Shown one piece after another: positions 1-14,529 of a stretch of DNA of 64,000 nucleotides. The stretch lies in NCBI RefSeq assembly GCF_024223415.1, contig NZ_CP100500.1. One strand, 5' to 3'. A program made the position numbers and the translations under genes. The notes beneath the pieces are model-generated. The model was not told the origin of the DNA, made no database searches, and saw nothing but the letters and a program-made list of their open reading frames with translations. This DNA is from Escherichia coli. GTDB taxonomy: Bacteria; Pseudomonadota; Gammaproteobacteria; Enterobacterales; Enterobacteriaceae. Every line of letters starts with the position of its first letter. Position 1 is the first letter of the stretch.

Positions 1-72
1 GCGAAGCGCGTAACCGTTGCCCGTCCGGTTGTGTCGCTGTATTCGCCGCCCGTATCCGTCAGGGGGAAACCT

Positions 73-303
73 ATGCACAATAAAACAACACCGGACGCAG
101 CAGAAGAAGCAATGCAAATACTGATACGTGCGCTCGTTGATGTTACCCACATGGTGGAGATTATGGAGAGAAAATCACAGTCGGAGCACGACAAAAGAAA
201 ACTTAAAACAATAAAAATAATTGCCAAAAACTCGCTGATAAAAGTTACAGACATCCTTAATGAGGACATTAAAAGAATCAGGGAGAAAGTGTGTGATGCA
301 TAA
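73..303 (+). CDS. hypothetical small protein of satellite-like element (about 77 aa)
   Basis: ORF 31..303 in track; ATG at 73 preceded by AGGGGG RBS; no recognisable family. Confidence 0.35.
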   Translation: MHNKTTPDAAEEAMQILIRALVDVTHMVEIMERKSQSEHDKRKLKTIKIIAKNSLIKVTDILNEDIKRIREKVCDA

Positions 304-523
304 AATACCTTTTGATGTTCTTATTCATTCTGAAAACGCATTAATCCGTGCAAAGGAAATGGACGCATTACTACTTAAGTTAATTGATGTGCCGGAAAGT
401 GGCGATGAATCTGATTCAATAATGTTTTCTGCCGTGCGTACGCTATTAACGCATGTTATTAATGAATTAAATACAGTGATGGCAATTCACGAGAATAATA
501 AAGCGCAGCACACCGGAGAATAA
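296..523 (+). CDS. hypothetical small protein (about 75 aa)
   Basis: ORF in track; internal ATG at 296 (MHKIPF...) with GGGAGAAAG RBS, overlaps stop of upstream ORF; no recognisable family. Confidence 0.35.
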   Translation: MHKIPFDVLIHSENALIRAKEMDALLLKLIDVPESGDESDSIMFSAVRTLLTHVINELNTVMAIHENNKAQHTGE

Positions 524-528
524 AAACC

Positions 529-828
529 ATGAAAAATAAAAATTCTGGCGTTAATGCCAGCGGCCCCGCTCGGCCTGAATTTATGAACGGCGATATTTAC
601 CGCGACCAGTACGGCGGCACGGTAACGATTAAAGGCGTGGAGGAACGGCGCATCACTTACCGCCGTGAAGGCTACGAATATGATTGCGTGATGCCTGTTT
701 ATCAGTTCCGGCGTGATTTTTCTCTGGTACAGGCAGCGCCCCGCAGTAAACCAACCAGCAGGGAGAAAGCACGCGCCAATATTCAGGAAATAAAAAAGAT
801 GCTTAACGTATTCAGGGGTAAAAAATGA
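529..828 (+). CDS. hypothetical protein (99 aa)
   Basis: ORF in track, stop overlaps start of primase gene (operon-like coupling); no recognisable family. Confidence 0.4.
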   Translation: MKNKNSGVNASGPARPEFMNGDIYRDQYGGTVTIKGVEERRITYRREGYEYDCVMPVYQFRRDFSLVQAAPRSKPTSREKARANIQEIKKMLNVFRGKK

Positions 829-2573
829 AACTGGCACCGAACGTAAAAAAACAGCCGCGTGGAATAAAACACAAAGACACAGAGGTGATTATCTTTGCGG
901 GTAGTGATGCCTGGGCGCACGCGAAACAGTGGCAGGAACAGGACGGCCCCGCATCCGGCGATGATGTGCCGCCTGTGTGGCTCGGGCCAAATCAGCTTGC
1001 TGAACTGGATGCACTGAAAATTGTACCGGAGGGAAAAAAACGCGTAAGGCTGTACAGGGCCGGAGAACTGGATTTGGTGGAGACCAAAAAGATTGGTCAG
1101 AAGCTGGCGGCGGCAGATATTCAGGATGCGAATTTTTACTCTGAAGGAATGCACGGCCAGAAGGTGCAGAACTGGCGGCGCTATCTGAGTGCTGAGCGTG
1201 AAAATATTGCCGCAGGGCTTACCATGCCGGAACAGAAAAAAGCACAACTTTCACAGATGGCAGACAGTGAACGGGCACAGCTTCTTTCTTCCCGCTTTGA
1301 TGGTGTCTGCGTCCATGCAGAAAGTGAAATCGTTCACGTATGGCGCGGCGGGGTATGGTGTCCGGTCAGCACAATGGAACTTAGCCGCGAAATGGTGGCG
1401 ATCTATTCAGAGCACAGGGCCACTTTCAGCAAGCGCGTAATCAATAACGCCGTGGAAGCGTTAAAAGTTATTGCCGAACCAATGGGCGAGCCGTCCGGCG
1501 ATTTGCTGCCGTTCGCCAATGGTGCGCTTGACCTGAAAACGGGGGAATTTTCCCCGCACACGCCGGAGAACTGGATCACCACGCACAACGGCATTGAGTA
1601 CACGCCACCAGCACCAGGGGAGAATATCTGCGACAACGCGCCAAACTTTCATAAATGGCTTGAGCACGCAGCCGGAAAAGACCCGCGCAAGATGATGCGT
1701 ATATGTGCCGCGCTGTACATGATTATGGCGAACCGGTACGACTGGCAGATGTTTATTGAGGCCACCGGAGACGGCGGGAGCGGCAAAAGTACATTCACAC
1801 ACATAGCCAGCCTTCTGGCAGGGAAACAGAACACGGTAAGCGCTGAGATGACATCGCTTGATGATGCTGGTGGGCGTGCGCAGGTTGTCGGGAGTCGGCT
1901 TATTGTCCTGGCAGACCAGCCGAAATATACAGGCGAAGGAACGGGCATCAAGAAAATCACGGGCGGAGACCCCGTGGAAATAAACCCGAAATATGAGAAG
2001 CGTTTTACGGCGGTAATCAGGGCGGTGGTGCTGGCTACCAACAATAACCCGATGATATTCACCGAACGGGCCGGAGGTGTGTCACGTCGTCGCGTAATTT
2101 TCCGTTTCGACAATATCGTCAGTGAGGCTGAAAAAGACAGGGAGCTACCGGAAAAGATTGCGGCTGAAATCCCTGTCATTATCCGCCGCTTGCTGGCGAA
2201 CTTTGCCGACCCTGAAAAGGCACGGGCTTTACTCATTGAACAGCGAGACGGTGATGAAGCTCTGGCAATAAAGCAACAGACGGATCCGGTTATTGAGTTT
2301 TGCCAGTTTCTGAATTTTCTGGAGGAAGCGCGCGGCCTGATGATGGGCGGCGGCGGTGACTCTTCCAGGTACACGACCAGAAACAGCCTTTACCGCGTCT
2401 ATCTGGCGTTTATGGCGTATGCAGGCAGGAGCAAACCGCTAAACGTAAATGACTTTGGCAAGGCTATGAAGCCAGCGGCGAAAGTTTACGGACATGAATA
2501 TATAACGCGCAGGATTAAAGGGTTTACGCAAACCAACGTGACAACAACAGACGACTGCGACGCGTTTTTATAA
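825..2573 (+). CDS. phage/plasmid primase-helicase, P4/D5 family C-terminal domain with P-loop NTPase
   Basis: 582 aa ORF; Walker A motif GDGGSGKST followed by hydrophobic strand plus acidic Walker B-like LIVLADQ; architecture typical of satellite/PICI pri-rep proteins; iteron cluster immediately downstream. Confidence 0.75.
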   Translation: MKLAPNVKKQPRGIKHKDTEVIIFAGSDAWAHAKQWQEQDGPASGDDVPPVWLGPNQLAELDALKIVPEGKKRVRLYRAGELDLVETKKIGQKLAAADIQDANFYSEGMHGQKVQNWRRYLSAERENIAAGLTMPEQKKAQLSQMADSERAQLLSSRFDGVCVHAESEIVHVWRGGVWCPVSTMELSREMVAIYSEHRATFSKRVINNAVEALKVIAEPMGEPSGDLLPFANGALDLKTGEFSPHTPENWITTHNGIEYTPPAPGENICDNAPNFHKWLEHAAGKDPRKMMRICAALYMIMANRYDWQMFIEATGDGGSGKSTFTHIASLLAGKQNTVSAEMTSLDDAGGRAQVVGSRLIVLADQPKYTGEGTGIKKITGGDPVEINPKYEKRFTAVIRAVVLATNNNPMIFTERAGGVSRRRVIFRFDNIVSEAEKDRELPEKIAAEIPVIIRRLLANFADPEKARALLIEQRDGDEALAIKQQTDPVIEFCQFLNFLEEARGLMMGGGGDSSRYTTRNSLYRVYLAFMAYAGRSKPLNVNDFGKAMKPAAKVYGHEYITRRIKGFTQTNVTTTDDCDAFL

Positions 2574-2860
2574 TTTTTTGTAATTGCTGTCTACCCTGTC
2601 TACCTGAGTAAAGAAAAATACATTTAATTCAGTGCATTAAGTTAGGTAGATAGCCTTTTTTTACTGTCTACCCACTATCTACCCTCTCTACCTGATTTTA
2701 CCAGAATCAGACAGGGAGGTAGACACGGGGTAGATAGTGGATAAAAGCACTCTACCCCGCTGAAAGCCGCGCCATTACTGGCATGAGGGCCACTAAGGTA
2801 GGTAAGGTAGACAAGGGGAGGCACAACTCAAAACTTTTTAAACGAGGGGGTAAAAATAAA
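2574..2860. repeat. iteron cluster, putative replication origin (GTCTACC / GGTAGAC repeats)
   Basis: At least ten copies of 7-mer GTCTACC / GGTAGAC (and variants CTCTACC, GGTAGAT) in both orientations within about 290 bp, directly 3' of the primase gene. Confidence 0.6.
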
Positions 2861-2861
2861 A

Positions 2862-3119
2862 ATGCACACATCAGAAAAATTTAACAATCAGAAGAAATCA
2901 CATAACCGCGCCATTGACCTTACAGAGCACTGGCTGAGGGTGGCGATAAAAATCATCGACCGCAACGCGGGAGAAGGATACGCGAAAGCACATCCCGAAC
3001 TGATAAGCGCATTCATGACCACAGCGGCGGCAAACTTTGCCACGTTGACAGAACGGGAGATTGCCGAAGCGGAACAGGTGACAACCATCAATGTTAAAAC
3101 CGGAGAGCAGACAGCATGA
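2862..3119 (+). CDS. hypothetical protein (85 aa)
   Basis: ORF in track with GGGGG RBS upstream; stop overlaps next gene start. Confidence 0.4.
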   Translation: MHTSEKFNNQKKSHNRAIDLTEHWLRVAIKIIDRNAGEGYAKAHPELISAFMTTAAANFATLTEREIAEAEQVTTINVKTGEQTA

Positions 3120-3526
3120 CAGCACAGATAGCGGCTTACGGGCGGCTGGTGGACGACCCGCAGACAAAACAGACCAGCAAGGGAACACCGATGACGCTGG
3201 CACGTATGGCGGTATCGCTGCCATGCAGCCAGGCACAGGATGGACAGGCGACGTTATGGCTATCGGTCATCGCATTTGGTAAGCAGGCCGACTTCCTGGC
3301 TAAACATCAAAAAGGCGACGTTGCCAGCGTATCCGGCACGATGCAGGTCAGCCAGTGGACCGGACAGAACGGGGAAACGCGGCAGGGTTATCAGGTTATT
3401 GCAGACAGCGTAATCAGTGCCCGTGCGGCACGTCCTGGCGGGAACAGACGCAAAACCACAGGCACACAGGGTAATCAGCCACCAGCGGGAGGCGATGACC
3501 CTTACGGTGATGATATTCCGTTCTGA
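3116..3526 (+). CDS. single-stranded DNA-binding protein (SSB-like, OB fold with acidic DDIPF tail)
   Basis: 136 aa; N-terminal OB-fold-like region, Gly/Pro/Gln-rich linker and C-terminal ...DDPYGDDIPF characteristic of SSB tails. Confidence 0.6.
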   Translation: MTAQIAAYGRLVDDPQTKQTSKGTPMTLARMAVSLPCSQAQDGQATLWLSVIAFGKQADFLAKHQKGDVASVSGTMQVSQWTGQNGETRQGYQVIADSVISARAARPGGNRRKTTGTQGNQPPAGGDDPYGDDIPF

Positions 3527-3536
3527 GGGGGTGACG

Positions 3537-3809
3537 ATGGTACATGACCGGATAGCGGAGGAACTGGAGGCGAAAGGATTTTACCGGAGGGCGGCCGCGC
3601 GATGGGGTGAAGTTATGAGGCTGGTGAGCACTGACAAGGAGCGCGAACAGGTGGCAATGCGACGGCTGGAATGTTCACAGAAGGCACAGAGGCCACCGGA
3701 GCCGCCGGATGATTTAGGCGCTCTGAAAAGGTCAGTTAATCGCACTGAAAAACAAATGGGGATAGCTGGTATTGGCAAAGCAATATGGCGCAACTACCCG
3801 CAGAAGTGA
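3537..3809 (+). CDS. PerC-family-like transcriptional regulator (about 90 aa)
   Basis: Internal ATG at 3537 with GAGGGGG RBS; sequence MVHDRIAEELEAKGFYRRAAARWGEVM resembles N-terminal signature I recall for PerC/Pch-like activators; assignment from memory only. Confidence 0.45.
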   Translation: MVHDRIAEELEAKGFYRRAAARWGEVMRLVSTDKEREQVAMRRLECSQKAQRPPEPPDDLGALKRSVNRTEKQMGIAGIGKAIWRNYPQK

Positions 3810-3816
3810 GCACACA

Positions 3817-3839
3817 GCCGGAGCAATCCGGCTTTTTTG
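3817..3839 (+). terminator. rho-independent terminator
   Basis: GCCGGAGCAATCCGGC hairpin followed by TTTTTT. Confidence 0.6.
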
Positions 3840-3844
3840 CACCC

Positions 3845-3890
3845 AAAAAAAGCCCGATAAGTACAGGAGGCATCTTATCGGGCTTTTGCA
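3845..3890. terminator. second hairpin, possibly bidirectional terminator
   Basis: A-run, AGCCCGATAAG ... CTTATCGGGCT inverted repeat, then T-rich. Confidence 0.45.
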
Positions 3891-3966
3891 TATGAGGTTT
3901 TTTTTGGTGCACTGACACACATGATCGGGATAATCATTTCATAATTTGCAACGTAACTCAATATTG

Positions 3967-3994
3967 TTGCGCAAAATGCAATCATGATTATAAT
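3967..3994 (+). promoter_or_regulatory. sigma70-like promoter (-35 TTGCGC, 16 bp spacer, -10 TATAAT) upstream of capsid module
   Basis: Consensus -10 TATAAT at 3989-3994 with -35-like TTGCGC at 3967-3972; followed by perfect 8+2+8 palindrome CTGGATGAACATCCAG at about 4001-4016. Confidence 0.45.
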
Positions 3995-4050
3995 CAGGAC
4001 TGGATGAACATCCAGTTATGATTTTTTAAGTCAAAGAGGAATTTCTGACT

Positions 4051-4257
4051 ATGGCAGAAGAGAAAAAAGGCGGGGTGACGGTCTACATAAGCCCCGACAT
4101 CGTGGAGGCGCTCAAGGAACGCCACCAGCAGAATGTAAAAGCAGGCATTGCGGCAGGACTTGATCCGCTGGCGATGGTTGAGCCGTCAACAGGCTGGCAG
4201 GTGCGTACCTATTTACGTGCGGCGCTGGGTATCAATCAGGTTCACGGAGGTGAATAA
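4051..4257 (+). CDS. hypothetical small protein (68 aa), first gene of capsid module
   Basis: ORF in track with AAGAGGAA RBS; stop overlaps start of major capsid gene. Confidence 0.45.
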   Translation: MAEEKKGGVTVYISPDIVEALKERHQQNVKAGIAAGLDPLAMVEPSTGWQVRTYLRAALGINQVHGGE

Positions 4258-5312
4258 TGACAGGCAAAGCAACGGCACTTACAACTAACCAGCTTTTCGC
4301 GTACCTGAATCGCGGGGATATTTCGGAATTAAAATTCAGTCCGCTGTTTACCACGCTGTTTTTCCCGAACGTGGCGACCTTCAACACCCAAAACATCATG
4401 CTGGACACCCTGGACATTGAAGAGGTTACGATGTCAGCGTTCTGTTCGCCTATGGTGGGTAGTCAGGTCCAGCGCGATAAAGGGTACGAAACCAGCACAA
4501 TCAAACCTGGCTACATGAAGCCAAAGCACGAAATCGATCCAACAAAGACCATCATGCGCATGGCTGGAGAAGATCCGGCACAGCTTAACGACCCAACCTA
4601 TCGCCGTATGCGCCTGATTACTGGCAACATGCGCCGCCAGGTAAACGCCATTAAAGCGCGTGTTGAATGGCTGGCGGTGAATGCGGTAACGACCGGAAAA
4701 AACATCATTGAGGGCGAAGGCATAGAACGCTATGAAATCGACTGGAAAATACCGGAAAACTGCATCATACAGCAGGCCAGTGGTAAAAAATGGTCCCAGC
4801 AGGATAAAGACATGCACGACCCAATCTATGACATCGAGCTTTATGCTGATCAGGCAGGTTGCCCCGCCAACGTCATGATTATGGGCGGTGAGGTATGGCG
4901 CACATTACGCAGCTTTAAAAAATTCCGTGAACTGTACGATCTTTCCCGTGGATCAGAATCCGCCGCCGAGCTGGCCTGTAAAAACCTGGGCGAAGTGGTG
5001 AGCTTTAAAGGCTATCTTGGTGATCTGGCCCTTATCGTCTATTCCGGCAAATACACTGACAGCGACGGCACCGAAAAATATTTCCTTGAGCCTGATTTGC
5101 TGGTCCTGGGTAACACCAATAATAAAGGGCTGGTGGCATATGGTGCGATTATGGATCAGGAAGCGGTAAGAACGGGCGCAACGCAAAACATGTACTACCC
5201 GAAAAACTGGATTGAGGACGGCGATCCGGCGATTGAGTACGTGCAGACGCACAGCGCACCGCAGCCGGTACCGGCAGATATTCGCAAATTTGTTACCGTC
5301 AAAATTGCTTAA
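4257..5312 (+). CDS. major capsid protein, lambda gpE family
   Basis: 351 aa; segments FSPLFTTLFFPN and PGYMKPKHEIDP match lambda gpE (FDPLFLRLFFRES, PGYVKPKHEVNP) as I recall it; similar length (341 aa) and conserved C-terminal block. Confidence 0.8.
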   Translation: MTGKATALTTNQLFAYLNRGDISELKFSPLFTTLFFPNVATFNTQNIMLDTLDIEEVTMSAFCSPMVGSQVQRDKGYETSTIKPGYMKPKHEIDPTKTIMRMAGEDPAQLNDPTYRRMRLITGNMRRQVNAIKARVEWLAVNAVTTGKNIIEGEGIERYEIDWKIPENCIIQQASGKKWSQQDKDMHDPIYDIELYADQAGCPANVMIMGGEVWRTLRSFKKFRELYDLSRGSESAAELACKNLGEVVSFKGYLGDLALIVYSGKYTDSDGTEKYFLEPDLLVLGNTNNKGLVAYGAIMDQEAVRTGATQNMYYPKNWIEDGDPAIEYVQTHSAPQPVPADIRKFVTVKIA

Positions 5313-5323
5313 CGGGGGATTCT

Positions 5324-5659
5324 ATGGACGCTCCATATATTGAGTTATTTGCAGGCAGCCAGCAGGTATCCACGACGCTGGTACATTTTGCCGCTGATGC
5401 TGGCGTTATTCAGGAATTTACCCCGCTGATGCTGGCAGACAATGGCGAGTTTAAGGCGTGGGATGGTCAGGAATCTGGCAAAGCTGTTTATCTGACTTCG
5501 CACCCCGTGGACACGTCAAAGCAGAAATCAGCACAGTGTTACAAAACGGGGATATTCAATATTGCCGCCGTTAACTGGCCTGACAGCGTCGACACCGATG
5601 CGAAAAAATGCGCCGCCTTTGCGGGTTCCGGCGTATCCGTTCAGCCGCTGGCCCGATAA
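5324..5659 (+). CDS. head decoration protein, lambda gpD family
   Basis: 111 aa; TPLMLADNGEFKAWDG and YKTGIFN...AAFAGSGVSV match lambda gpD (TPLMLDTSSRKLVAWDG, YKSGTF...TAFAGTAISIV); same size as gpD. Confidence 0.7.
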   Translation: MDAPYIELFAGSQQVSTTLVHFAADAGVIQEFTPLMLADNGEFKAWDGQESGKAVYLTSHPVDTSKQKSAQCYKTGIFNIAAVNWPDSVDTDAKKCAAFAGSGVSVQPLAR

Positions 5660-5671
5660 GCAGGGGGAACG

Positions 5672-6085
5672 ATGGCAACGAATGAAAGTATCATGACGCT
5701 ACCGCTGGCGAGTAAATTTAAAGCCGAAGCGCGGGCAATGGCTGACAGAGGTTTATCAACCTACGAGGCCATACACCGACTAAACAAACTGGAAGAACAG
5801 GACAAGCCGCGCGCTGATGCGATTATGGCGCTTCATGAATCTGACGACTACCAGCCGCTGTTACGTGCAATGGCTAACGTGCCTTGTATCGATGTTGGTA
5901 CGGCTAAAAGCATCCTTAGCATGACCATAGAGCAGGAACGCCCGAAGGTTGCACCAGAGCTTACTTCAGCCTTTGAAAACTTTATGGACATGCACAGCCC
6001 GAAAGCCGTATCAGCTGGCATGGCATACGATGGCAGAACCCCGTGCGATGACGGCGACATCGACCGCATACTGAAAACCATCTGA
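5672..6085 (+). CDS. hypothetical protein (137 aa) of capsid/packaging module
   Basis: ORF in track with GGGGGA RBS; no family recognised. Confidence 0.45.
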   Translation: MATNESIMTLPLASKFKAEARAMADRGLSTYEAIHRLNKLEEQDKPRADAIMALHESDDYQPLLRAMANVPCIDVGTAKSILSMTIEQERPKVAPELTSAFENFMDMHSPKAVSAGMAYDGRTPCDDGDIDRILKTI

Positions 6086-6091
6086 GACAAG

Positions 6092-6115
6092 GCCGGAGAA
6101 ATCCGGCTTTTTTTG
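6092..6115 (+). terminator. rho-independent terminator
   Basis: GCCGGAGAAATCCGGC hairpin followed by TTTTTTT; same terminator module as at 3817. Confidence 0.6.
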
Positions 6116-6200
6116 CGGGTCCTTTCCGGCATGTGGACCCGTTACGGGGCGTCGACCTCGCACGTTTTCGCTATTTATGACGTTTTTCCGTGAAGGTGAC
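6110..6200 (+). other. lambda-type cos site 1 (cosQ-like, cosN GGGCGTCGACCT at 6147-6158, downstream segment)
   Basis: GGGTCCTTTCCGG...GTTACGGGGCGTCGACCTCGCACGTTTTCGCTATTTATGA closely matches the lambda cos region as I recall it (ACGGGTCCTTTCCGG...GTTACGGGGCGGCGACCTCGCGGGTTTTCGCTATTTATGAAAATTTTCCGG). Confidence 0.7.
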
Positions 6201-6247
6201 ACCACCACCACTTGATTAATATTTAACCATGTAGTTAAGGTAACATT

Positions 6248-6682
6248 ATGATTGATAAAGCTTGTTTTGTAAGTCAGCAGGAAATAGCTGAACATTTCAA
6301 TGTTAACAGAACCACTATTCGCGCATGGACCAAACAGGGGATGCCGTATCTTAATGCGGATCGCGGAAAGTCTGGCGGTTATCACATCGGGCATACATTG
6401 TTTTGGTATTCAGGTAAAAGCCATCTTCAGACCATCGGATATCACGTAGAAACCAGTGCGCTGGAAAAAATTATGTTTGCCAGGCTGCTTTCATCTGAGC
6501 GTGACGAGTACTCCAGTGAAGAAACAGAACATCGATTTGATGAAGGTTTGCAGATTTACGGCTATTCACCGGAAGATGTGAGCAAGGCACGAAATAAAAT
6601 GGCTGGCTTTCTGGCTGGGTGGCGTCATGCCGTAAGCGTTCGCCGTGCCAGCATGGAGCAATCAGCCGATACAGAACAGTAA
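6248..6682 (+). CDS. terminase small subunit, lambda Nu1-like (N-terminal winged HTH)
   Basis: 144 aa; QQEIAEHFNVNRTTIRAWTKQGMPYL...HTLFWYSGK aligns with lambda Nu1 KKQLADIFGASIRTIQNWQEQGMPVL...AVIKWYAER; about 90 bp downstream of cosN-like site as in lambda. Confidence 0.7.
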   Translation: MIDKACFVSQQEIAEHFNVNRTTIRAWTKQGMPYLNADRGKSGGYHIGHTLFWYSGKSHLQTIGYHVETSALEKIMFARLLSSERDEYSSEETEHRFDEGLQIYGYSPEDVSKARNKMAGFLAGWRHAVSVRRASMEQSADTEQ

Positions 6683-6729
6683 AGCCGATAACTTGTTAAT
6701 CACGCGCAGCAATGCGTGTGATTTTTGCA

Positions 6730-6850
6730 CACTTCCGGTTAACGGGTACGATGTCCGGTTTGTTTGTACATTTTTTGCACATGTCCGGTTCGCAGAAAGC
6801 ATGTTTTTATATTTTTCAGATAGTTAACTTGCAGAGAAACCGGACATGGA
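6730..6850. repeat. repeated TGTCCGGTT motifs (putative cosB-like terminase small-subunit binding sites)
   Basis: CACTTCCGGTT (6732), GATGTCCGGTT (6759), CATGTCCGGTT (6790) direct, and AACCGGACATG (6839) inverted. Confidence 0.5.
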
Positions 6851-6935
6851 TCCCGAAAAATTTTCATAAATAGTGAAAACGCGCGGGTTCGACGCCCCGT
6901 AACGGGCCATAATTCCAGAAGGACCCGACGACACC
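6830..6935 (-). other. lambda-type cos site 2, inverted relative to cos site 1
   Basis: Reverse complement reads GGGTCCTTCTGG...CCCGTTACGGGGCGTCGAACCCGCGCGTTTTCACTATTTATGAAAATTTTTCGGG, paralogous to site at 6110-6200 and to lambda cos. Confidence 0.65.
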
Positions 6936-6960
6936 AGACTATCAGAGCGATGGGGGCACA

Positions 6961-7242
6961 ATGACAGAAGCCGAACTACTGGGATTAATCCGCCGCGTTA
7001 CCGGAATCAGCCAGCAGCATGACGAACAGGCCACGCAGCCGGACAGCGTGACCGCCGAAAATTATGTGCGTGTTGTTGCGGAGGTGATGCGCCGTGACGG
7101 TATTGAGCTTAACGGCGTGGATATGCGCGACATACGGATCCGCGTTCTGGAAATGCTGGCATACCGTCGCCGCGTGCAGACGTACAGGGAAAAAGCAAAA
7201 ATAACGTACCACTGGAAGAAGCCGGAACGACTGCGTACGTAA
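6961..7242 (+). CDS. hypothetical protein (93 aa)
   Basis: ORF in track; weak RBS; last ORF of element before repeat-rich end. Confidence 0.3.
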   Translation: MTEAELLGLIRRVTGISQQHDEQATQPDSVTAENYVRVVAEVMRRDGIELNGVDMRDIRIRVLEMLAYRRRVQTYREKAKITYHWKKPERLRT

Positions 7243-7366
7243 TACGTACGGACATCGAGATAACGCAAAATTGCGCTGGCTACATCCCTCACATCTGAGG
7301 ACTGATAACAAGCTGCCTGAAAGACAGTCACAAACTACGAAATTTTCGCAGTTTAATTAATGGTCA

Positions 7367-7670
7367 GCTTAATCGCTAACCCGCTGATATTTTCGGAAAC
7401 ATCAATTTGAGGAAGTCGGCGCGGTAACTCGCTGAACTTAAAGCAAAGCGCAAAATTGCGCTGATTACTGGTTGGAATTGTTCCAGAGTGCAAATTTGCA
7501 CTCTGGCCTAACCCGTTGATTATTTCGAAAACCTGCAATGCAGGAAATCGGGGAAGTAAGCCTAAGCTATTGATTGTTTCGAAAACCACCATTGGGGGAT
7601 GTCGGGAAAGTAAGACTAACCCATTGATTCTTCCACAATCCTCAATGTGAGGAGGCCGGACATCGTGACA
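7367..7670. repeat. four imperfect direct repeats of about 54 bp (CTAACCCNTTGAT...GTAAG), three in tandem
   Basis: Units at about 7373-7427, 7507-7560, 7562-7615, 7616-7670 share CTAACCC(G/A)(C/T)TGAT ... TCGG..AAGTAAG and each contains a short internal inverted repeat. Confidence 0.6.
7483..7506. promoter_or_regulatory. 24-bp perfect palindrome CCAGAGTGCAAATTTGCACTCTGG
   Basis: Perfect dyad symmetry seen directly; nearby related inverted repeats GCGCAA-AA-TTGCGC at 7448-7461 and CGCAA-AA-TTGCG at 7264-7275. Confidence 0.5.
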
Positions 7671-7954
7671 GAGCGTGACAACCAGGTAACTAATCTCGCT
7701 GGTGGGCGTGATGTCGATATGGTGATCCCCATAACGGGTTATCCGTGATCATCCACCAGCTTCATGGCAGATAGCCGGAAAATGATAACGGTTAAGCAAA
7801 ACTGCCAGCAAATTTCCCTTTTGTTTGTTATTGTTCGTCGTTGTTCGTAGAGCTTCAACAAAATGTGTGGTCAGTTGTGTGGTCAGTTTTGAGGTTTTTA
7901 ATTCTTATGTGCTGAAAAACTTATTAATTATCAACTGATAACAAAAATTAGTAA

Positions 7955-8048
7955 GAAATACCCGTATCACCTGATCTGGATAATGCCAGCGTAGGGAAGT
8001 CACGGACCACCAGGTCATTGCTTCTTCACGTTATGGCAGGAGCAAACT
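7955..8048 (+). promoter_or_regulatory. 3' portion of thiM TPP riboswitch (thi-box) and expression platform; 5' half of aptamer absent
   Basis: GAAATACCCGTATCACCTGATCTGGATAATGCCAGCGTAGGGAAGT matches the well-studied E. coli thiM aptamer 3' half from memory; expected upstream GGGGTGCCCTTCTGCGTGAAGGCTGA is replaced by AT-rich unrelated sequence. Confidence 0.6.
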
Positions 8049-8837
8049 ATGCAAGTCGACCTGCTGGGTTCAGCGCAATCTGCGCACGCGTTACACCTTT
8101 TTCACCAACATTCCCCTCTTGTGCACTGCATGACCAATGATGTGGTGCAAACCTTTACCGCCAATACCTTGCTGGCGCTCGGTGCATCGCCAGCGATGGT
8201 TATCGAAACCGAAGAGGCCAGTCAGTTTGCGGCTATCGCCAGTGCCTTGTTGATTAACGTTGGCACACTGACGCAGCCACGCGCTCAGGCGATGCGTGCT
8301 GCCGTTGAGCAAGCAAAAAGCTCTCAAACACCCTGGACGCTTGATCCAGTAGCGGTGGGTGCGCTCGATTATCGCCGCCATTTTTGTCATGAACTTTTAT
8401 CTTTTAAACCGGCAGCGATACGTGGTAATGCTTCGGAAATCATGGCATTAGCTGGCATTGCTAATGGCGGACGGGGAGTGGATACCACTGACGCCGCAGC
8501 TAACGCGATACCCGCTGCACAAACACTGGCACGGGAAACTGGCGCAATCGTCGTGGTCACTGGCGAGATGGATTATGTTACCGATGGACATCGTATCATT
8601 GGTATTCACGGTGGTGATCCGTTAATGACCAAAGTGGTAGGAACTGGCTGTGCATTATCGGCGGTTGTCGCTGCCTGCTGTGCGTTACCAGGCGATACGC
8701 TGGAAAATGTCGCATCTGCCTGTCACTGGATGAAACAAGCCGGAGAACGCGCAGTCGCCAGAAGCGAGGGGCCAGGCAGTTTTGTTCCACATTTCCTTGA
8801 TGCGCTCTGGCAATTGACGCAGGAGGTGCAGGCATGA
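8049..8837 (+). CDS. thiM: hydroxyethylthiazole kinase
   Basis: 262 aa ORF, recognised ThiM sequence; overlaps thiD start. Confidence 0.95.
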
Positions 8838-9634
8838 AACGAATTAACGCTCTGACGATTGCCGGTACTGATCCGAGTGGTGGTGCGGGGATTCAGGCCG
8901 ATCTTAAAACCTTCTCGGCACTTGGCGCTTATGGTTGCTCAGTTATTACTGCACTGGTGGCGCAAAATACCCGTGGCGTACAGTCGGTGTATCGCATTGA
9001 GCCTGATTTTGTCGCCGCCCAGCTCGATTCGGTGTTCAGCGATGTGCGAATCGATACCACTAAAATCGGTATGCTGGCGGAAACCGATATTGTTGAAGCG
9101 GTGGCAGAACGGTTGCAACGTTATCAGATCCAAAACGTGGTACTCGACACCGTTATGCTGGCAAAAAGCGGCGACCCGCTGCTTTCACCTTCGGCGGTTG
9201 CTACGCTGCGCAGTCGATTATTGCCACAGGTTTCATTAATAACGCCAAACTTGCCCGAAGCTGCCGCCTTGCTCGACGCGCCACACGCGCGCACCGAACA
9301 GGAAATGCTGGAACAAGGGCGATCGCTGTTGGCGATGGGCTGTGGCGCAGTGCTAATGAAAGGTGGTCATCTGGATGATGAGCAAAGCCCGGACTGGCTG
9401 TTTACCCGCGAGGGTGAACAACGGTTTACCGCACCGCGCATTATGACCAAAAACACCCACGGCACTGGTTGTACACTCTCTGCGGCGTTGGCTGCACTAC
9501 GCCCGCGCCATACAAACTGGGCTGACACCGTACAGGAGGCAAAAAGCTGGCTTTCATCGGCGTTAGCCCAGGCCGACACGCTGGAAGTTGGTCACGGTAT
9601 TGGTCCGGTTCACCACTTCCACGCCTGGTGGTGA
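8834..9634 (+). CDS. thiD: hydroxymethylpyrimidine / phosphomethylpyrimidine kinase
   Basis: 266 aa ORF, recognised ThiD. Confidence 0.95.
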
Positions 9635-9689
9635 GCACCGTACTATAGCTGCTTTGGTTATTGTCAGCCTTTGGCACTGACATTCAGGG

Positions 9690-10517
9690 ATGAAACCAAT
9701 GCAGCTAAGAATTACCAGTCGAAAAAAACTCACCTCTCTATTATGCGCTCTTGGGCTAATTTCCATCGTTGCAATTTATCCGCGTCAGACGGTGAATTTT
9801 TTCTATTCGACAGCAGTTCAGATTACAGACTACATCCACTTCTACGGTTATCGCCCGGTTAAATCTTTCGCTATTCGCATTCCTGCCAGTTACACCATTC
9901 ACGGAATAGATGTTTCGCGCTGGCAGGAGCGGATCGACTGGCAGCGGGTGGCAAAAATGCGCGACAACGGTATCCGCTTACAGTTTGCTTTTATTAAGGC
10001 GACGGAAGGCGAAAAGCTGGTGGACCCCTATTTTTCGCGTAACTGGCAACTAAGCCGCGAAAATGGCCTGCTGCGTGGGGCGTATCATTATTTCTCCCCG
10101 TCGGTATCCGCTTCAGTTCAGGCGAGATTATTTCTGCAAACGGTGGATTTCTCACAAGGCGATTTCCCTGCCGTGCTGGACGTAGAAGAACGGGGAAAAT
10201 TATCGGCAAAAGAATTACGCAAGCGGGTAAGTCAGTGGCTAAAAATGGTCGAAAAAAGTACGGGGAAAAAGCCGATTATTTACTCAGGAGCCGTTTTTTA
10301 TCACACCAATCTGGCGGGCTATTTCAATGAATATCCGTGGTGGGTGGCTCACTACTATCAACGTCGTCCGGACAATGACGGAATGGCCTGGCGCTTCTGG
10401 CAGCATTCCGACCGTGGACAGGTAGATGGCATCAATGGTCCGGTGGATTTTAATGTATTTAATGGCACGGTGGAGGAGTTGCAGGCATTCGTTGATGGGA
10501 TTAAAGAAACGCCTTAA
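9690..10517 (+). CDS. yegX: glycoside hydrolase family 25 (lysozyme-like) protein
   Basis: 275 aa; N-terminal hydrophobic segment; GH25-like region (IHGIDVSRWQ...); conserved position next to thiD. Confidence 0.8.
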   Translation: MKPMQLRITSRKKLTSLLCALGLISIVAIYPRQTVNFFYSTAVQITDYIHFYGYRPVKSFAIRIPASYTIHGIDVSRWQERIDWQRVAKMRDNGIRLQFAFIKATEGEKLVDPYFSRNWQLSRENGLLRGAYHYFSPSVSASVQARLFLQTVDFSQGDFPAVLDVEERGKLSAKELRKRVSQWLKMVEKSTGKKPIIYSGAVFYHTNLAGYFNEYPWWVAHYYQRRPDNDGMAWRFWQHSDRGQVDGINGPVDFNVFNGTVEELQAFVDGIKETP

Positions 10518-10568
10518 ATAAGAAGCAGTGATATACTCCCACCAGACTCCCCGGCAGGAAAAAGACAA

Positions 10569-11315
10569 ATGGAACAAGCGCATACCCAGCTGATTGCCCA
10601 ACTGAACGAGCGTATTTTAGCGGCGGATAACACGCCGCTTTATATTAAGTTTGCCGAAACGGTAAAAAATGCCGTGCGCAGCGGGGTGCTGGAGCATGGC
10701 AATATTTTGCCCGGTGAGCGTGATTTAAGTCAGTTAACCGGCGTTTCGCGCATTACGGTGCGCAAGGCGATGCAGGCGCTGGAAGAAGAGGGTGTGGTGA
10801 CGCGTTCGCGCGGTTACGGCACGCAGATCAACAACATCTTCGAATACTCGTTGAAAGAAGCGCGAGGTTTTTCTCAGCAGGTGGTATTGCGCGGGAAAAA
10901 GCCCGATACGCTATGGGTTAACAAGCGTGTCGTGAAATGTCCCGAAGAAGTCGCGCAGCAGCTGGCGGTCGAAGCAGGAAGTGATGTCTTTTTGCTTAAG
11001 CGTATTCGCTATGTCGATGAAGAAGCGGTATCGATTGAGGAATCGTGGGTTCCGGCGCATTTAATTCATGATGTTGATGCCATCGGGATTTCACTTTATG
11101 ACTATTTCCGCAGCCAGCACATTTACCCACAACGTACGCGTTCCCGCGTTAGCGCCCGGATGCCAGATGCCGAGTTTCAGTCACATATTCAGTTAGATAG
11201 CAAAATACCGGTGCTGGTGATCAAGCAAGTGGCGCTTGACCAACAGCAACGGCCTATTGAATACAGCATTAGCCACTGTCGCAGCGATCTATACGTTTTT
11301 GTGTGCGAGGAGTAG
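10569..11315 (+). CDS. yegW: GntR-family transcriptional regulator
   Basis: 248 aa; N-terminal GntR-type HTH, UTRA-like C-terminus. Confidence 0.85.
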   Translation: MEQAHTQLIAQLNERILAADNTPLYIKFAETVKNAVRSGVLEHGNILPGERDLSQLTGVSRITVRKAMQALEEEGVVTRSRGYGTQINNIFEYSLKEARGFSQQVVLRGKKPDTLWVNKRVVKCPEEVAQQLAVEAGSDVFLLKRIRYVDEEAVSIEESWVPAHLIHDVDAIGISLYDYFRSQHIYPQRTRSRVSARMPDAEFQSHIQLDSKIPVLVIKQVALDQQQRPIEYSISHCRSDLYVFVCEE

Positions 11316-12254
11316 TTCCTCGCGCGTTGGCGCACAATCACCGCCCCGATGCCCGACAACCCACGACGCCACTGCATTGCCCAGTAATACGGCATCCGCC
11401 AGTGGCAGACCAGAGGCCAGCCCGGCAAGTACGCCACCGGCATGACTGTCGCCCGCCCCAATGGTGTCGACAACTTGCGTTGGAAATGCCGGAATGCAGC
11501 CAGAAGCGTCGTTGCTGAAATACCATGCGCCTTCTTTATCGAGACGAACGATCAACGGCGCGGCAAATTTCTCCTGCCATTGTTTGCCAAGTGTTGTTAT
11601 CTCTGCGGATAAAGCAAAACGTTCGGCGGCAATCTCAGCCTCTTGACGATTGAGCGACACTAAAGGTCGACAGGCCATGATCCGCGCCAGTAATGCATCC
11701 GGGATATCGCCAATACGTGGGCCAAAATCGATAAACGGCGTCACGTCTTGCAGCTTTTCCAGCCATTCCACTAATAATTCGCCGCAGGGCGAGGCCAGTT
11801 GATAACCGGAAAAATAGAGCAGGCTGCCAGGCGCAACGGTTAATCGCGCCAGACACTGGCGATTCCACTGATTTTCCACACCGCTGAATGACATAAAAGT
11901 GCGTTCGCCATCCGGCTCAACCAGCGCCAGACACCAGCCGTTATCACCTTCGGCGTTATCGATCAGGCTGATTAAGCCCTCTTTTGCCATCCGGTTGCGA
12001 ATAATCTCCGCCCACACGCCCTGACCGAGCGGCAAGGCATTACCCGCTTCGATGCCGAGGCGCTTTAACGCCACGGCAATATTCAGTGCGCAGCCGCCAA
12101 CGTTAACGCTCTGCTGTTTCAGTTCGATATCGCACCCACGCCAGGGGAGGGCATAAGCGTCGGCGATCACGTCAATGACCGCCGCGCCGACGACCATCAC
12201 CGACTGACGCGTGGTTAATTCAGGCAGCAGCGTGTGTAATCGAGCGCCGCTCAT
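11289..12254 (-). CDS. yegV: PfkB-family sugar/nucleoside kinase
   Basis: 321 aa; PfkB motifs (GGCALN, DTIGAGD); conserved synteny. Confidence 0.85.
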   Translation of the reverse strand: MSGARLHTLLPELTTRQSVMVVGAAVIDVIADAYALPWRGCDIELKQQSVNVGGCALNIAVALKRLGIEAGNALPLGQGVWAEIIRNRMAKEGLISLIDNAEGDNGWCLALVEPDGERTFMSFSGVENQWNRQCLARLTVAPGSLLYFSGYQLASPCGELLVEWLEKLQDVTPFIDFGPRIGDIPDALLARIMACRPLVSLNRQEAEIAAERFALSAEITTLGKQWQEKFAAPLIVRLDKEGAWYFSNDASGCIPAFPTQVVDTIGAGDSHAGGVLAGLASGLPLADAVLLGNAVASWVVGHRGGDCAPTREELLLAHKNV

Positions 12255-13255
12255 ACCGCCTCCCGTTGTTGACGATATTTCGCCAGCGCTGTGGCATAGC
12301 GGTTGAAATCAAGCTGATTTACCGCATCCAGCTCCGCCTTTAACGCAGGATCGATAGCGTTAATGCCATGCAACGCGCCGCAGATTGCCGTCGCCATAGC
12401 ACCGATGGTGTCTGTATCGCCGCCAAGGTTAGCGCACAGTACGGCGCAACGGTTCGGGTCGGTTTGTGCCAGTTCAACCAGCGCAATGGCGCACGGAACG
12501 GACTCAATAGTGCTGGTACCTGCGCCAACGACCTGGTAAAGCTGTTCGCTGGCGGATTCGGTGCCGTCGGCATTGCGCACAATTTTCAGCGCAATCTCCA
12601 ACCGCGCTGCCAGTGAGGCGCTGAACGTAGTGATGCGTTTTTGCTGTGCATGTCGCGCAATTGAAGGCAGGGAATCAACAATCGCTGACCAGCTTTCTCC
12701 GTCAATGGCACGAGAAATCGCCCATGCGATGACTACCGCGCCTGCAACCGCCAGATCGGATTTATGGGTCGGGCTGGACGCCAGCGCTACATCATCAATA
12801 AAGGAATCAACATCACGCGCCGGAAGCAAACAACCTAATGGCGAGACGCGCATCGCTGCGCCGTTGGTCACGCCGTTGTTTTCCAGTTCAGCAACGGGTT
12901 TACCGTCGCGAATGGCGTTAAGCGCAATCTTCGAGGTCGGACCTAGTACGTTTTTGTTAAAGGCGTCGAAACGCAGCGCCCAGTCGAGAATATTACGCCC
13001 AATCAGATCCGGATCGATCTTGCCTTCACGTTCCAGTAACGCATCCGCCAGACACAGCGCCATCGAGGTATCGTCGGTGAATTCGGCGCGGTTAAAATAA
13101 CAGGCCGCGTTATTCTCCTTTGGTCCAGGAAGAAAACGGTCAATCCAGCCAAAGTGTGCTTTAACGCGGCTGCGTGGCCAAAGCTCGGAGGGCATCCCCA
13201 TCGCATCCCCTAACGCCTGCCCATAAAGAGCACCGAGAATACGTTCTGTTTTCAT
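12251..13255 (-). CDS. yegU: ADP-ribosylglycohydrolase family protein
   Basis: 334 aa; ADP-ribosylglycohydrolase-like sequence; translationally coupled to yegT and yegV. Confidence 0.85.
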   Translation of the reverse strand: MKTERILGALYGQALGDAMGMPSELWPRSRVKAHFGWIDRFLPGPKENNAACYFNRAEFTDDTSMALCLADALLEREGKIDPDLIGRNILDWALRFDAFNKNVLGPTSKIALNAIRDGKPVAELENNGVTNGAAMRVSPLGCLLPARDVDSFIDDVALASSPTHKSDLAVAGAVVIAWAISRAIDGESWSAIVDSLPSIARHAQQKRITTFSASLAARLEIALKIVRNADGTESASEQLYQVVGAGTSTIESVPCAIALVELAQTDPNRCAVLCANLGGDTDTIGAMATAICGALHGINAIDPALKAELDAVNQLDFNRYATALAKYRQQREAV

Positions 13256-14529
13256 TTAACTTCCCCTTGTGTCAACGCAATATCGCGATCATCGACCTTG
13301 ATAGCCGTAATTTCGTTGTCGGATTCGCGGAAAAAAATCATGAACAGCACGGCGATAATGGCAATCATCACCGCGCCGAAAGTCCACATCCCGGACCAGT
13401 TGAAAGTCAGTCCGTTTACCGGTTCCTGATAAGCGAACATCTTTTCCATCATCACACCGCCAAGACGATAGCCGAGCAAACTGCCGAAGCCCTGGCAGCA
13501 GAGCGTGATCAGCCCCTGCGCAGCGGTACGCATATGCACGGGGGCTTTTTTATCGACATAGATGTAAGCGGTAACGTAGTAAAAATCGTAACTTACGCCG
13601 TGAAGCAAAATACCGAGGAACAGTAACGCGTAGGTGAAATATTCATCCGCACTACCGTAAATAAAGAAGCCATAGCGGATCGCAGCGGTGACCAGACCAA
13701 GCAATAATACCTTTTTGATACCAAAGCGTTTAGTGAAAAACGGCAATGCCAGCATAAAGAAGATTTCAGAGAACTGGCCGAGCGTCATCCAGCCGGTGGC
13801 GTTTTTCATGCCAACTTCGGTCAGATAACCGTTGGCAAAGATGTAATAGAACGCTAGTGGCATCGCAAACAGGAATGAACAGAAGAAAAAGACGAGGAAG
13901 TTTTTATCGCGCAGCAGGATCAGCGCATCCAGGCCGAGCATGACTTTAATATCCATTTTGCCGGTGCTTTTTGGTGGCGTGTCGGGCAGGAAAAACGCAA
14001 ACACACCGAGCAGAGCAGAACTTCCGGCGGTAATCAGCAGCGGGATGTTAGTCGGTGAGATATCGGCATACCCCAGTATTTGCGGCAAGAAACCACATGC
14101 CAGACCGGAGGCAATCCAGCCGATAGTGCCCATCACACGAATGCGCGGGAAATCACGCTCAACATCCGGCACGTTGGCAAAAGCGATGCTGTTAGTCAGC
14201 GCAATGGTCGGCATATAGGTTAGCGAGTAGGCCAGCAGTAACGGGAAGAACCCGGCAAAAGTGGTCTGTTGCGCAGCGAAATACATCAGCAGCGCGCCTG
14301 CGAACATCAATACCGCCAGCACTTTCTGCGCCGAGAAAAAGCGGTCAGTGATGGAGCCAACCAGAATTGGCGACAGGATCGCCGCAATGGCGGTACAGGC
14401 ATACGACCAGCCAATTTCTCCGGCACTAAAACCGCTTTTACTTAACCACAACCACAATGGCACAAACCACGCGCCCCAGATAAACCATTCAACAAACATC
14501 ATGAACGACAGCTTTGCTGTTGTTTTCAT
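13252..14529 (-). CDS. yegT: nucleoside:H+ symporter family MFS transporter
   Basis: 425 aa polytopic membrane protein. Confidence 0.85.
   Translation of the reverse strand: MKTTAKLSFMMFVEWFIWGAWFVPLWLWLSKSGFSAGEIGWSYACTAIAAILSPILVGSITDRFFSAQKVLAVLMFAGALLMYFAAQQTTFAGFFPLLLAYSLTYMPTIALTNSIAFANVPDVERDFPRIRVMGTIGWIASGLACGFLPQILGYADISPTNIPLLITAGSSALLGVFAFFLPDTPPKSTGKMDIKVMLGLDALILLRDKNFLVFFFCSFLFAMPLAFYYIFANGYLTEVGMKNATGWMTLGQFSEIFFMLALPFFTKRFGIKKVLLLGLVTAAIRYGFFIYGSADEYFTYALLFLGILLHGVSYDFYYVTAYIYVDKKAPVHMRTAAQGLITLCCQGFGSLLGYRLGGVMMEKMFAYQEPVNGLTFNWSGMWTFGAVMIAIIAVLFMIFFRESDNEITAIKVDDRDIALTQGEVK

Follow-up and report, generated by a model that had tools for sequence, protein, structure and literature searches.

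Why most classical Gram-negative phage-inducible chromosomal islands (PICIs) carry a coat gene is a question that has stood since 2018. It is posed again by a four-gene operon at positions 4051-6085 of a 64,000 nt stretch of Escherichia coli DNA (contig NZ_CP100500.1 of assembly GCF_024223415.1), the whole of which we analysed and refer to as the window. The operon lies in an island of the EcCICFT073 type, and it sharpens the question: here the coat gene appears to be one part of a co-adapted shell kit, consisting of a coat protein, a cement protein, a Nu3-type scaffold and a satellite-only protein encoded by an overlapping gene. The question is sharpened further by two properties of this kit, namely that its coat and cement proteins form an old satellite clade and that the genes flanking them look like exchangeable alleles. 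As judged from homology, of the two halves of a lambdoid head module the island has the one that forms the shell (coat, cement, scaffold) and lacks the one for the portal vertex and for packaging (portal, protease, terminase, W, FI, FII).

Window positions 1-7900 align with positions 1381914-1388638 of the E. coli CFT073 chromosome as one colinear piece with 91.6% nucleotide identity, covering 85% of 1-7900, and positions 1-7953 are the right part of a classical EcCICFT073-type Gram-negative PICI. The CFT073 annotation gives the same series of genes: primase, an 85-amino-acid (aa) open reading frame (ORF), single-stranded DNA-binding protein (SSB), a PerC-like gene, a 68-aa ORF, major capsid, head decoration, and ORFs of 137, 144 and 93 aa. 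Six proteins compared with their CFT073 counterparts, the four of the operon, RppA and SSB, are 93-98% identical. Beyond this synteny, the element has the primase and iteron-type origin of an EcCICFT073-type PICI, a helper-type cos site with an Rpp protein and without terminase genes, and an incomplete head set without tail or lysis genes. Gene order and content equal those of EcCICFT073 from pri to the right end, as does the cos/rppA arrangement. The two islands differ in location, EcCICFT073 lying between roxA and phoQ whereas the window island adjoins thiM, and they show about 8% nucleotide divergence, with a PerC-like gene that is just 68% identical. The window begins within the island, and the left part (the integrase and alpA end) lies outside it. 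The left parts of six related islands that we examined contain regulatory and replication genes and no head genes. An integrase and an AlpA-type helix-turn-helix (HTH) gene stand at the left end in the islands of CFT073, strain Ch1 (L004), Edwardsiella tarda CM130058.1 (L005), E. coli ESBL_DR28 (L008) and E. coli APEC E12049 (L009). The right island/chromosome junction is at 7953/7954, upstream of the thiM riboswitch; from window position 7954 (query position 755) the sequence is common to 5424 of 5426 complete E. coli genomes, and the island is taken to end at about 7953 because near-universal E. coli sequence resumes there.

The original prediction had described four ORFs at this locus, with an E-like gene ahead of a D-like gene, and both the ORF list and the E and D homologies bear this out (Table 1); all four lie on the + strand. 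The stop codon of the first ORF overlaps the start of the coat gene by 1 nt, and the remaining intergenic gaps are 11-12 bases. These short distances, together with terminators on both sides and a conserved promoter block, make the region a single four-gene operon that runs from one promoter to one terminator, directly upstream of the cos site and rppA of the island. We regard the identity of the element and the anatomy of the operon, taken jointly, as nearly certain.

Table 1. Features of the island part of the window, in order of position, with the evidence for each.
Feature	Position	Strand	Evidence or description
P4/D5-type primase-helicase (pri)	825..2573	+	phrog_864 E 8e-168; TIGR01613 primase_Cterm 109 bits, cutoff 108.7
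Short iterated repeats 3′ of pri, probable replication origin	2587..2816	.	tandem repeats CTGTCTACC / ACTATCTACCC / AAGGTAGAC
Single-stranded DNA-binding protein (ssb)	3116..3526	+	phrog_44 E 1.7e-40; TIGR00621
PerC-family small regulator	3537..3809	+	phrog_994, phrog_10396 'transcriptional activator'; PerC family in CFT073, Ch1
Intrinsic terminator closing the upstream transcription unit (PerC-like gene)	3816..3839	+	terminator scan: 7-bp stem and T-run
Capsid-operon promoter block	3945..3994	+	TTTGCAACG; weak -35 TTGCGC 3967-3972; ATGCAAT; perfect -10 TATAAT 3989-3994
Leader hairpin and T-run, possible attenuator	3998..4027	+	terminator-like; RNA fold -15 kcal/mol, z -2.4
orf68, satellite-specific small protein	4051..4257	+	68 aa; phrog_3255; stop overlaps coat start by 1 nt
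gpE-type HK97-fold major capsid (coat) protein, satellite clade	4257..5312	+	351 aa
gpD/SHP-type head decoration (cement) protein, satellite clade	5324..5659	+	111 aa
orf137, free-standing Nu3-type internal scaffold homolog without protease domain	5672..6085	+	137 aa
Strong intrinsic terminator ending the operon	6091..6121	+	GCCGGA-GAAA-TCCGGC and T7; fold -18.6 kcal/mol, z -2.9
Lambda-type cosN	6147..6158	.	GGGCGTCGACCT; 1 mismatch to lambda; lambda-left-end-like sequence next
rppA homolog (redirecting phage packaging protein)	6248..6682	+	PDB RppC 6HLK E 1.6e-33
93-aa ORF, conserved in both PICI module types	6961..7242	+	phrog_1561

The coat protein is a full-length homolog of lambda E (43% identity over 343 aa, E 9e-93) and matches phrog_29 (E 3e-109), and PF03864 is recorded on its orthologs. 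It is also ~95% identical to PDB 3BQW (E 2.7e-229), a crystal structure with 100% identity to the coat protein of CFT073. The cement protein is 36% identical to lambda D and matches phrog_49 (E 1.5e-27), PF02924 being recorded on its orthologs; its best solved match is SHP of phage 21 (1TD0, E 4.6e-13). The island coat, cement and scaffold are all closest to phage-21-type versions. When all head and tail proteins of lambda and of PhiR12_2*, our reference for phage-21-type head and tail proteins, were compared with the 64-kb window by tblastn, the matches were confined to E, D and the C-terminus of Nu3, with no portal, protease domain, terminase, W, FI, FII or tail protein. The earlier statement that portal and protease are missing from the window is therefore upheld, and any shell made by the island must engage helper proteins, since the island holds neither.

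A scaffold had also been listed as missing, and on this point the prediction fails: five independent lines of evidence agree in making orf137 a Nu3-type scaffold homolog. Its match in PHROGs is phrog_53 (head maturation protease), at positions 496-566 of 583 (E 1e-7). A tblastn search of 50,697 phage genomes returned only the last ~80 residues of the fused C/Nu3 proteins of phage-21-type phages, with 35-36% identity; for the C-terminus of PhiR12_2* C/Nu3 the E value was 3e-4 database-wide and 7.5e-7 locally. With phmmer, a scan of 1.84 billion representative proteins gave a 195-aa Nu3-like protein (E 1e-5) whose relatives are the C-termini of S49 peptidases. The score of the orf137/Nu3 alignment was reached by 0 of 300 shuffles, and hhalign of the island family profile against a Nu3 alignment gave a probability of 97.1% (E 7e-11, residues 47-120). 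The alignment to phage-21-type C/Nu3 is colinear up to the C-terminus. Phage-21-type scaffolds, about 200 aa in length, have three ~40-aa helical repeats ('..RIMxLxEAxGRE..PGMT.E.A..IL..') followed by FExFMxxHSP and an acidic ..ML.. tail; orf137 keeps the last two 'IMxL...' helical repeats, the motif in the form FENFMDMHSP, the tail and a conserved C-terminal IDRILKTI. The single helical repeat of lambda Nu3 accounts for the failure of BLASTP to match it with orf137; the homology is visible only with phage-21-type Nu3 and at profile level. The protein is encoded by a stand-alone gene downstream of D and not in frame within an S49 protease gene C, and no S49 domain was found in the window. The AlphaFold2 (AF2) model of orf137 is all-helical, with a predicted local distance difference test (pLDDT) score of ~90 over residues 1-90. 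The Prokaryotic Genome Annotation Pipeline (PGAP) names the orf137 family 'phage head-tail connector protein', a misleading label that apparently echoes the obsolete one of phage 21 gpC, 'head-tail preconnector protein GP5 [contains scaffold protein GP6]', and that our assignment corrects to Nu3-type scaffold homolog.

Both flanking ORFs had been described as uncharacterised, with the proviso that they might turn out to be ordinary head proteins. That description stands for orf68, which occurs in satellites only and matches no such protein, and not for orf137, with its match to the Nu3 scaffold class. For orf68 we found no Pfam match, no tblastn match at E<=1 in 50,697 phage records, and no match to any head-region product of lambda or PhiR12. 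Lambda gpW, which has the same length (68 aa), was considered and rejected, there being no similarity. Homologs of orf68 were found in Escherichia, Salmonella and Edwardsiella, in every case upstream of the coat gene of an island. A ribbon-helix-helix protein is one possible reading of orf68. The ratio of non-synonymous to synonymous substitution rates (dN/dS) of 0.14-0.15 indicates a real gene, and the conserved gene overlap, whose single base is also found in L005 and in the related island L007, suggests that orf68 is a partner of the coat protein. Structure prediction of both small proteins, proposed earlier as a check, gave models without a significant structural neighbour for either: orf68 is modelled as a beta-hairpin and two helices (pLDDT 76) and its structure search found none, fold searches with orf137 found no solved neighbour, and profile searches of both proteins against PDB sequences returned nothing. 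Their only matches in PHROGs were phrog_3255, phrog_1999 and phrog_53, and Pfam gave nothing significant.

The promoter block ahead of orf68 is near-invariant in the window, CFT073, Ch1, L007 and the Edwardsiella island, where the proteins are ~60% identical, and follows the pattern TTTGCAAyG...TTGC...ATGCAATsATGATTAwAAT upstream of orf68 in the window, L001, L004, L005 and L007. With no consensus sigma-70 site found in a scan from 3537 to 5580, the promoter probably depends on an activator, for which the block is probably the binding site. The PerC-family gene directly upstream of the operon is a candidate for encoding that activator. The promoter region had no match in phage genomes, and thus no borrowed late promoter was detected. 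The leader hairpin that follows is not conserved in L007 or the Edwardsiella island. In the L008-type module, too, TTGCA motifs precede the coat gene.

Downstream, cosN lies between the operon terminator and rppA, and this cos region recurs in most E. coli genomes. The island part of the window contains one good cosN match (6147), compared with the two cos sites reported for EcCICFT073; a second, cosN-like site with 2 mismatches at 1961 lies inside pri and is probably due to chance. The rppA product is 95% identical to the 144-aa protein of CFT073, and c1503 is RppA in EcCICFT073 (PMC6739421). No homolog of the terminase proteins Nu1 or A was found by tblastn in the 64-kb window. Between the rppA genes of the window and CFT073 there are 0 synonymous and 7 non-synonymous differences.

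The reversed gene order might suggest a scrambled lambda module, but the coat and cement proteins are better described, from their sequence relationships, as an old satellite-specific clade with a fixed E-D order. Island coats are 55-84% identical to one another and phage coats 59-81%, whereas island and phage coats share 42-47%. The window coat is 84% identical to that of the L007 island, 63% to that of the Edwardsiella island and 55% to that of the L008 island, and <=47% identical to any phage coat in our collection; the coat of the Edwardsiella island is just 46.5% identical to the coat of the prophage hosting it. The cement proteins follow the same clade pattern. E precedes D in all six satellite modules (window, CFT073, Ch1, L007, L005/L006 and L008/L009), and the order is C/Nu3-D-E in the four phage or prophage modules with both genes (lambda, PhiR12_2*, Gifsy-1 and the Edwardsiella prophage). 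The island order, E-D-Nu3′, is no circular permutation of Nu3-D-E and thus points to an old rearrangement or assembly and not to a recent capture. Compared with the head module of lambda and phage 21 (C/Nu3 or gp5/gp6, D or SHP, E or gp7), the coat, the cement and the C-terminal region of the scaffold are homologous. The differences are the gene order, a scaffold gene that is separate in the island and nested in the protease gene in the phages, the lack of portal, protease, terminase, W, FI and FII, and the low coat identity given above.

All four genes are under purifying selection. Against CFT073, dN/dS is 0.15 for orf68, 0.09 for the coat, 0.19 for the cement and 0.24 for orf137, and against L007 it is 0.14, 0.10 and 0.11 for orf68, coat and cement, the synonymous divergence of orf137 being saturated in that comparison. 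Among 5426 complete E. coli genomes, 597 cover at least 80% of the operon, mostly with 90-95% identity; Nissle 1917 and O157:H7 strains are among them. These figures bear on the idea that the operon is a functionless, decaying remnant of captured late genes. Such a fate would fit the deletions that have had no phenotype in assays so far, but the ORFs are all intact, dN/dS stays at 0.09-0.24 in near and far comparisons, the stop/start overlap and the promoter are conserved from Escherichia to Edwardsiella, and the module is found in those 597 genomes; we consider decay very improbable.

The two flanking genes are far more diverged than their neighbours. In nucleotide comparisons with L007, coat and cement are 77-94% identical and cos and rppA 83-93%, whereas orf137 is 47-64% identical (5672-6085 versus 1873-2277) and orf68 61-70% (4051-4257 versus 255-461). 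The N-terminal SIMxLPLASKF and C-terminal IDRILKTI motifs of orf137 are nevertheless invariant. From this pattern orf137 and orf68 look like exchangeable alleles swapped by recombination. Strain Ch1 shows strong modular exchange among islands: its capsid cassette is 98.6% identical to that of the window within an island that has a different integrase, a different attachment site (tRNA-Pro) and a different replicase (a RepA-type helicase). In Ch1 a ProQ/FinO-family gene (8309-8893) stands between the PerC-like gene and the capsid operon. Relative to Ch1, orf137 has 1 synonymous and 6 non-synonymous differences; the numbers are small, and the non-synonymous excess in rppA and orf137 hints at diversifying selection at helper-contact surfaces.

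What might such a kit do? Its most likely role, which we put forward tentatively, is that of a conditional, satellite-owned shell kit used on helper portals. Following helper induction, the island coat and its own scaffold would assemble on an initiator of helper portal and protease, and the island cement protein would then stabilise the shell, giving shells built by the satellite or of mixed origin. RppA would redirect the helper terminase to the adjacent cos, and the terminase would fill these shells with island concatemers. Lambda Nu3 has as partners the portal B, the protease C, itself and E, and is required for portal incorporation (PMC3224144). The scaffold and orf68 may be the best candidates for contact with helper proteins: orf68 and the variable body of orf137 would be the helper-facing parts, and the invariant orf137 C-terminus the coat-facing part. 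A scaffold and cement of the island's own make sense in this scheme because a coat with so little identity to phage coats may not fit helper Nu3 and D. The role is described as conditional because coat and cement are dispensable with lambda.

Several observations weigh against a shell kit of this kind. The coat and cement genes of EcCICFT073, c1499 and c1500, were noted in 2018 and deleted by analogy with Ccm of SaPIbov5 (PMC6092414). Deletion of c1499 or c1500 neither restored lambda plaquing nor reduced transfer by the resident prophages, and all DNA packaged in particles made with lambda and EcCICFT073 was phage-sized (PMC6092414). When the genes following the origin were cloned singly, c1503 (rppA) alone inhibited lambda (PMC6739421). 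Of 29 reference Gram-negative PICIs, 21 have a coat gene, and transfer does not depend on it (PMC10111431). Our search of the literature available to us found no later functional study of these capsid-operon genes. That a coat so diverged would nucleate on a helper portal, and that the island proteins enter particles, are presumptions. The islands themselves also vary. The L008/L009 lineage has coat, cement and an unrelated 127-aa HTH protein with neither orf68 nor a Nu3-like gene (L008 also encodes a true Nu1-like TerS and a 94-aa ORF), and the Edwardsiella island has orf70-E-D only, without scaffold. Scaffold and orf68 are thus not obligatory partners of the coat; the conserved core is coat and cement, and the two flanking ORFs are lineage-specific, exchangeable accessories.

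The original prediction named the two flanking ORFs as candidates for capsid-size redirection or helper interaction, in a role like that of Sid or CpmAB. Under size redirection, the coat, the short scaffold and/or the 68-aa protein would hold the capsids made with natural helpers to a small size (T=4 or less), leaving room for one or two island genomes and excluding the helper genome, as Ccm (SaPIbov5) and CpmB (SaPI1) do. Precedent is provided by Ccm itself and by PmCI172, which has a gene for a coat homolog and whose capsids are small (PMC6893505; PMC6092414). The island scaffold has two repeats in 137 aa, compared with three in phage-21-type Nu3, and a satellite scaffold that carries the C-terminal region of the helper scaffold follows the principle of CpmB. 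The size argument from repeat number does not hold. Lambda and phage-21-type phages have T=7 heads, and lambda reaches that size with the one repeat of its Nu3 and phage-21-type phages with three, so that repeat number was rejected as a capsid-size ruler.

The known size-determining proteins resemble the island proteins in part. Like CpmB of SaPI1 (which acts with CpmA), orf137 would be a satellite-encoded internal scaffold acting on coat protein, but CpmB uses the coat of the helper whereas the island brings its own, and with lambda no size redirection was seen for EcCICFT073. Like Ccm of SaPIbov5, the island coat is a satellite HK97-fold homolog of a helper coat in a cos-packaged island. Ccm, however, turns prolate capsids into small isometric ones and blocks the helper, a phenotype that coat deletion in EcCICFT073 did not reveal, and it has no accompanying cement or scaffold. 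The variability and satellite-specificity of the flanking ORFs and the shortened scaffold agree with a Sid/CpmAB-like role, but searches of PHROGs and Pfam revealed no similarity of orf68 or orf137 to Sid, Psu or CpmA/CpmB. For lambda, redirection is unsupported because the packaged DNA is phage-sized and deletion of coat or cement is without effect, leaving interference intact; EcCICFT073 is described as encoding a coat homolog yet using full-size capsids (PMC6893505), and the authors of the packaging experiments regarded size redirection as ruled out ('ruling out'; PMC6092414). Redirection is therefore contradicted for this helper by data from a 92%-identical island. Other helpers are a separate matter, packaged-DNA size having been published for lambda only, and with these we consider redirection unlikely.

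Interference or immunity would be another use for the same genes: the island coat, cement or scaffold could join the assembly of certain lambdoid phages other than lambda, or titrate their capsid components, and by poisoning their heads protect the host population. PICIs typically hold several interference mechanisms in this region, and the divergent, exchangeable flanking alleles, with the non-synonymous excess of orf137 against Ch1, would fit conflict interfaces. However, c1503 was the only gene to inhibit lambda when expressed singly, and interference persisted after deletion of the coat or the cement gene. Coat and cement are moreover under strong purifying and not diversifying selection, and none of the four operon proteins matched a defence-system model in PADLOC. 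We judge this use quite unlikely.

PICIs embedded in their helpers suggest a further function, that of a back-up copy. Such islands (11capE type) sit in helper late genes, mostly capsid gene E, and their coat set could replace the interrupted or delayed helper function, an idea raised in PMC10111431; in chromosomal islands such as that of the window it would simply be carried along. These islands share the coat clade and the E-D order (L005, L009) and differ in lying inside helper late genes, whereas the window island is chromosomal and next to thiM. The same E-D pair occurs in PICIs that interrupt a portal gene (L005) or a capsid gene (L009). The L005 island (1-10120) is a helper-embedded PICI within the portal gene of a lambdoid prophage, in the order int, alpA, pri, 70-aa ORF, E, D, the 3′ part of portal and then helper C, D, E and FI, so that two different D-E pairs lie within 5 kb. 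The L009 island (1-11787), inside a lambdoid capsid gene E, carries a HEPN and DUF262 pair that is probable defence cargo. Against a back-up function, purifying selection on the operon persists in the islands of the window, CFT073 and Ch1, all of which are chromosomal. An identity of just ~45% between island and helper coats makes simple substitution doubtful, and the redundancy is not essential according to PMC10111431. We regard this explanation as improbable.

Capsid-forming PICIs (cf-PICIs) such as EcCIEDL933 likewise have their own coat protein, and their left arm (int, alpA, rep) is of the PICI type. The cf-PICIs differ in making small capsids of their own and in having genes for protease, portal, head-tail connectors, HNH and the two terminase subunits; tblastn and a PHROG scan found none of this gene set (portal, protease, head-tail adaptor or connector, TerS, TerL) in the window. 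One may speculate that classical Gram-negative PICIs of this type are 'half capsid-forming', an intermediate between satellites that steal whole virions and the tail-stealing cf-PICIs. They would build their shell on a stolen helper portal, with orf68 and scaffold as interchangeable adaptors to portal and protease that might also set another capsid size with some natural helpers. This is a possibility in which we place low confidence.

The module has been published before; it is no new observation, and no defective lambda head module either. As an outcome of genome scanning the result is mostly negative, a known satellite module and no new system. What our analysis adds is the assignment of orf137 as a scaffold, a coat/cement clade specific to satellites in which the order E-D is fixed, flanking genes that behave as mosaic alleles, and the conserved promoter.

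The remaining features of the island are those of its replication and right-arm regions. The repeats 3′ of pri agree with the position of PICI origins 3′ of the replication gene (PMC6092414). The 93-aa ORF is 75-88% identical in L001, L004, L007 and L008. Between it and the chromosome junction, the non-coding right arm contains about four 54-bp tandem repeats (window 7370-7650; Tandem Repeats Finder core 7508-7629) with the consensus CTAACCCATTGATTATTTCGAAAACCACC... On the chromosomal side, annotation confirmed that thiM adjoins the island, and the genes at window 8049-14529 are, by product, what we take to be the thiM-thiD and yegX-yegW-yegV-yegU-yegT neighbourhood of the K-12 map. No tRNA gene was found anywhere in the window, and the attachment site of the island is therefore not a tRNA. 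About 65 bp inside the right junction, at window 7864-7888, there is a perfect 12-bp tandem duplication (TGTGTGGTCAGT x2) that may be tied to integrase binding or to the att site.

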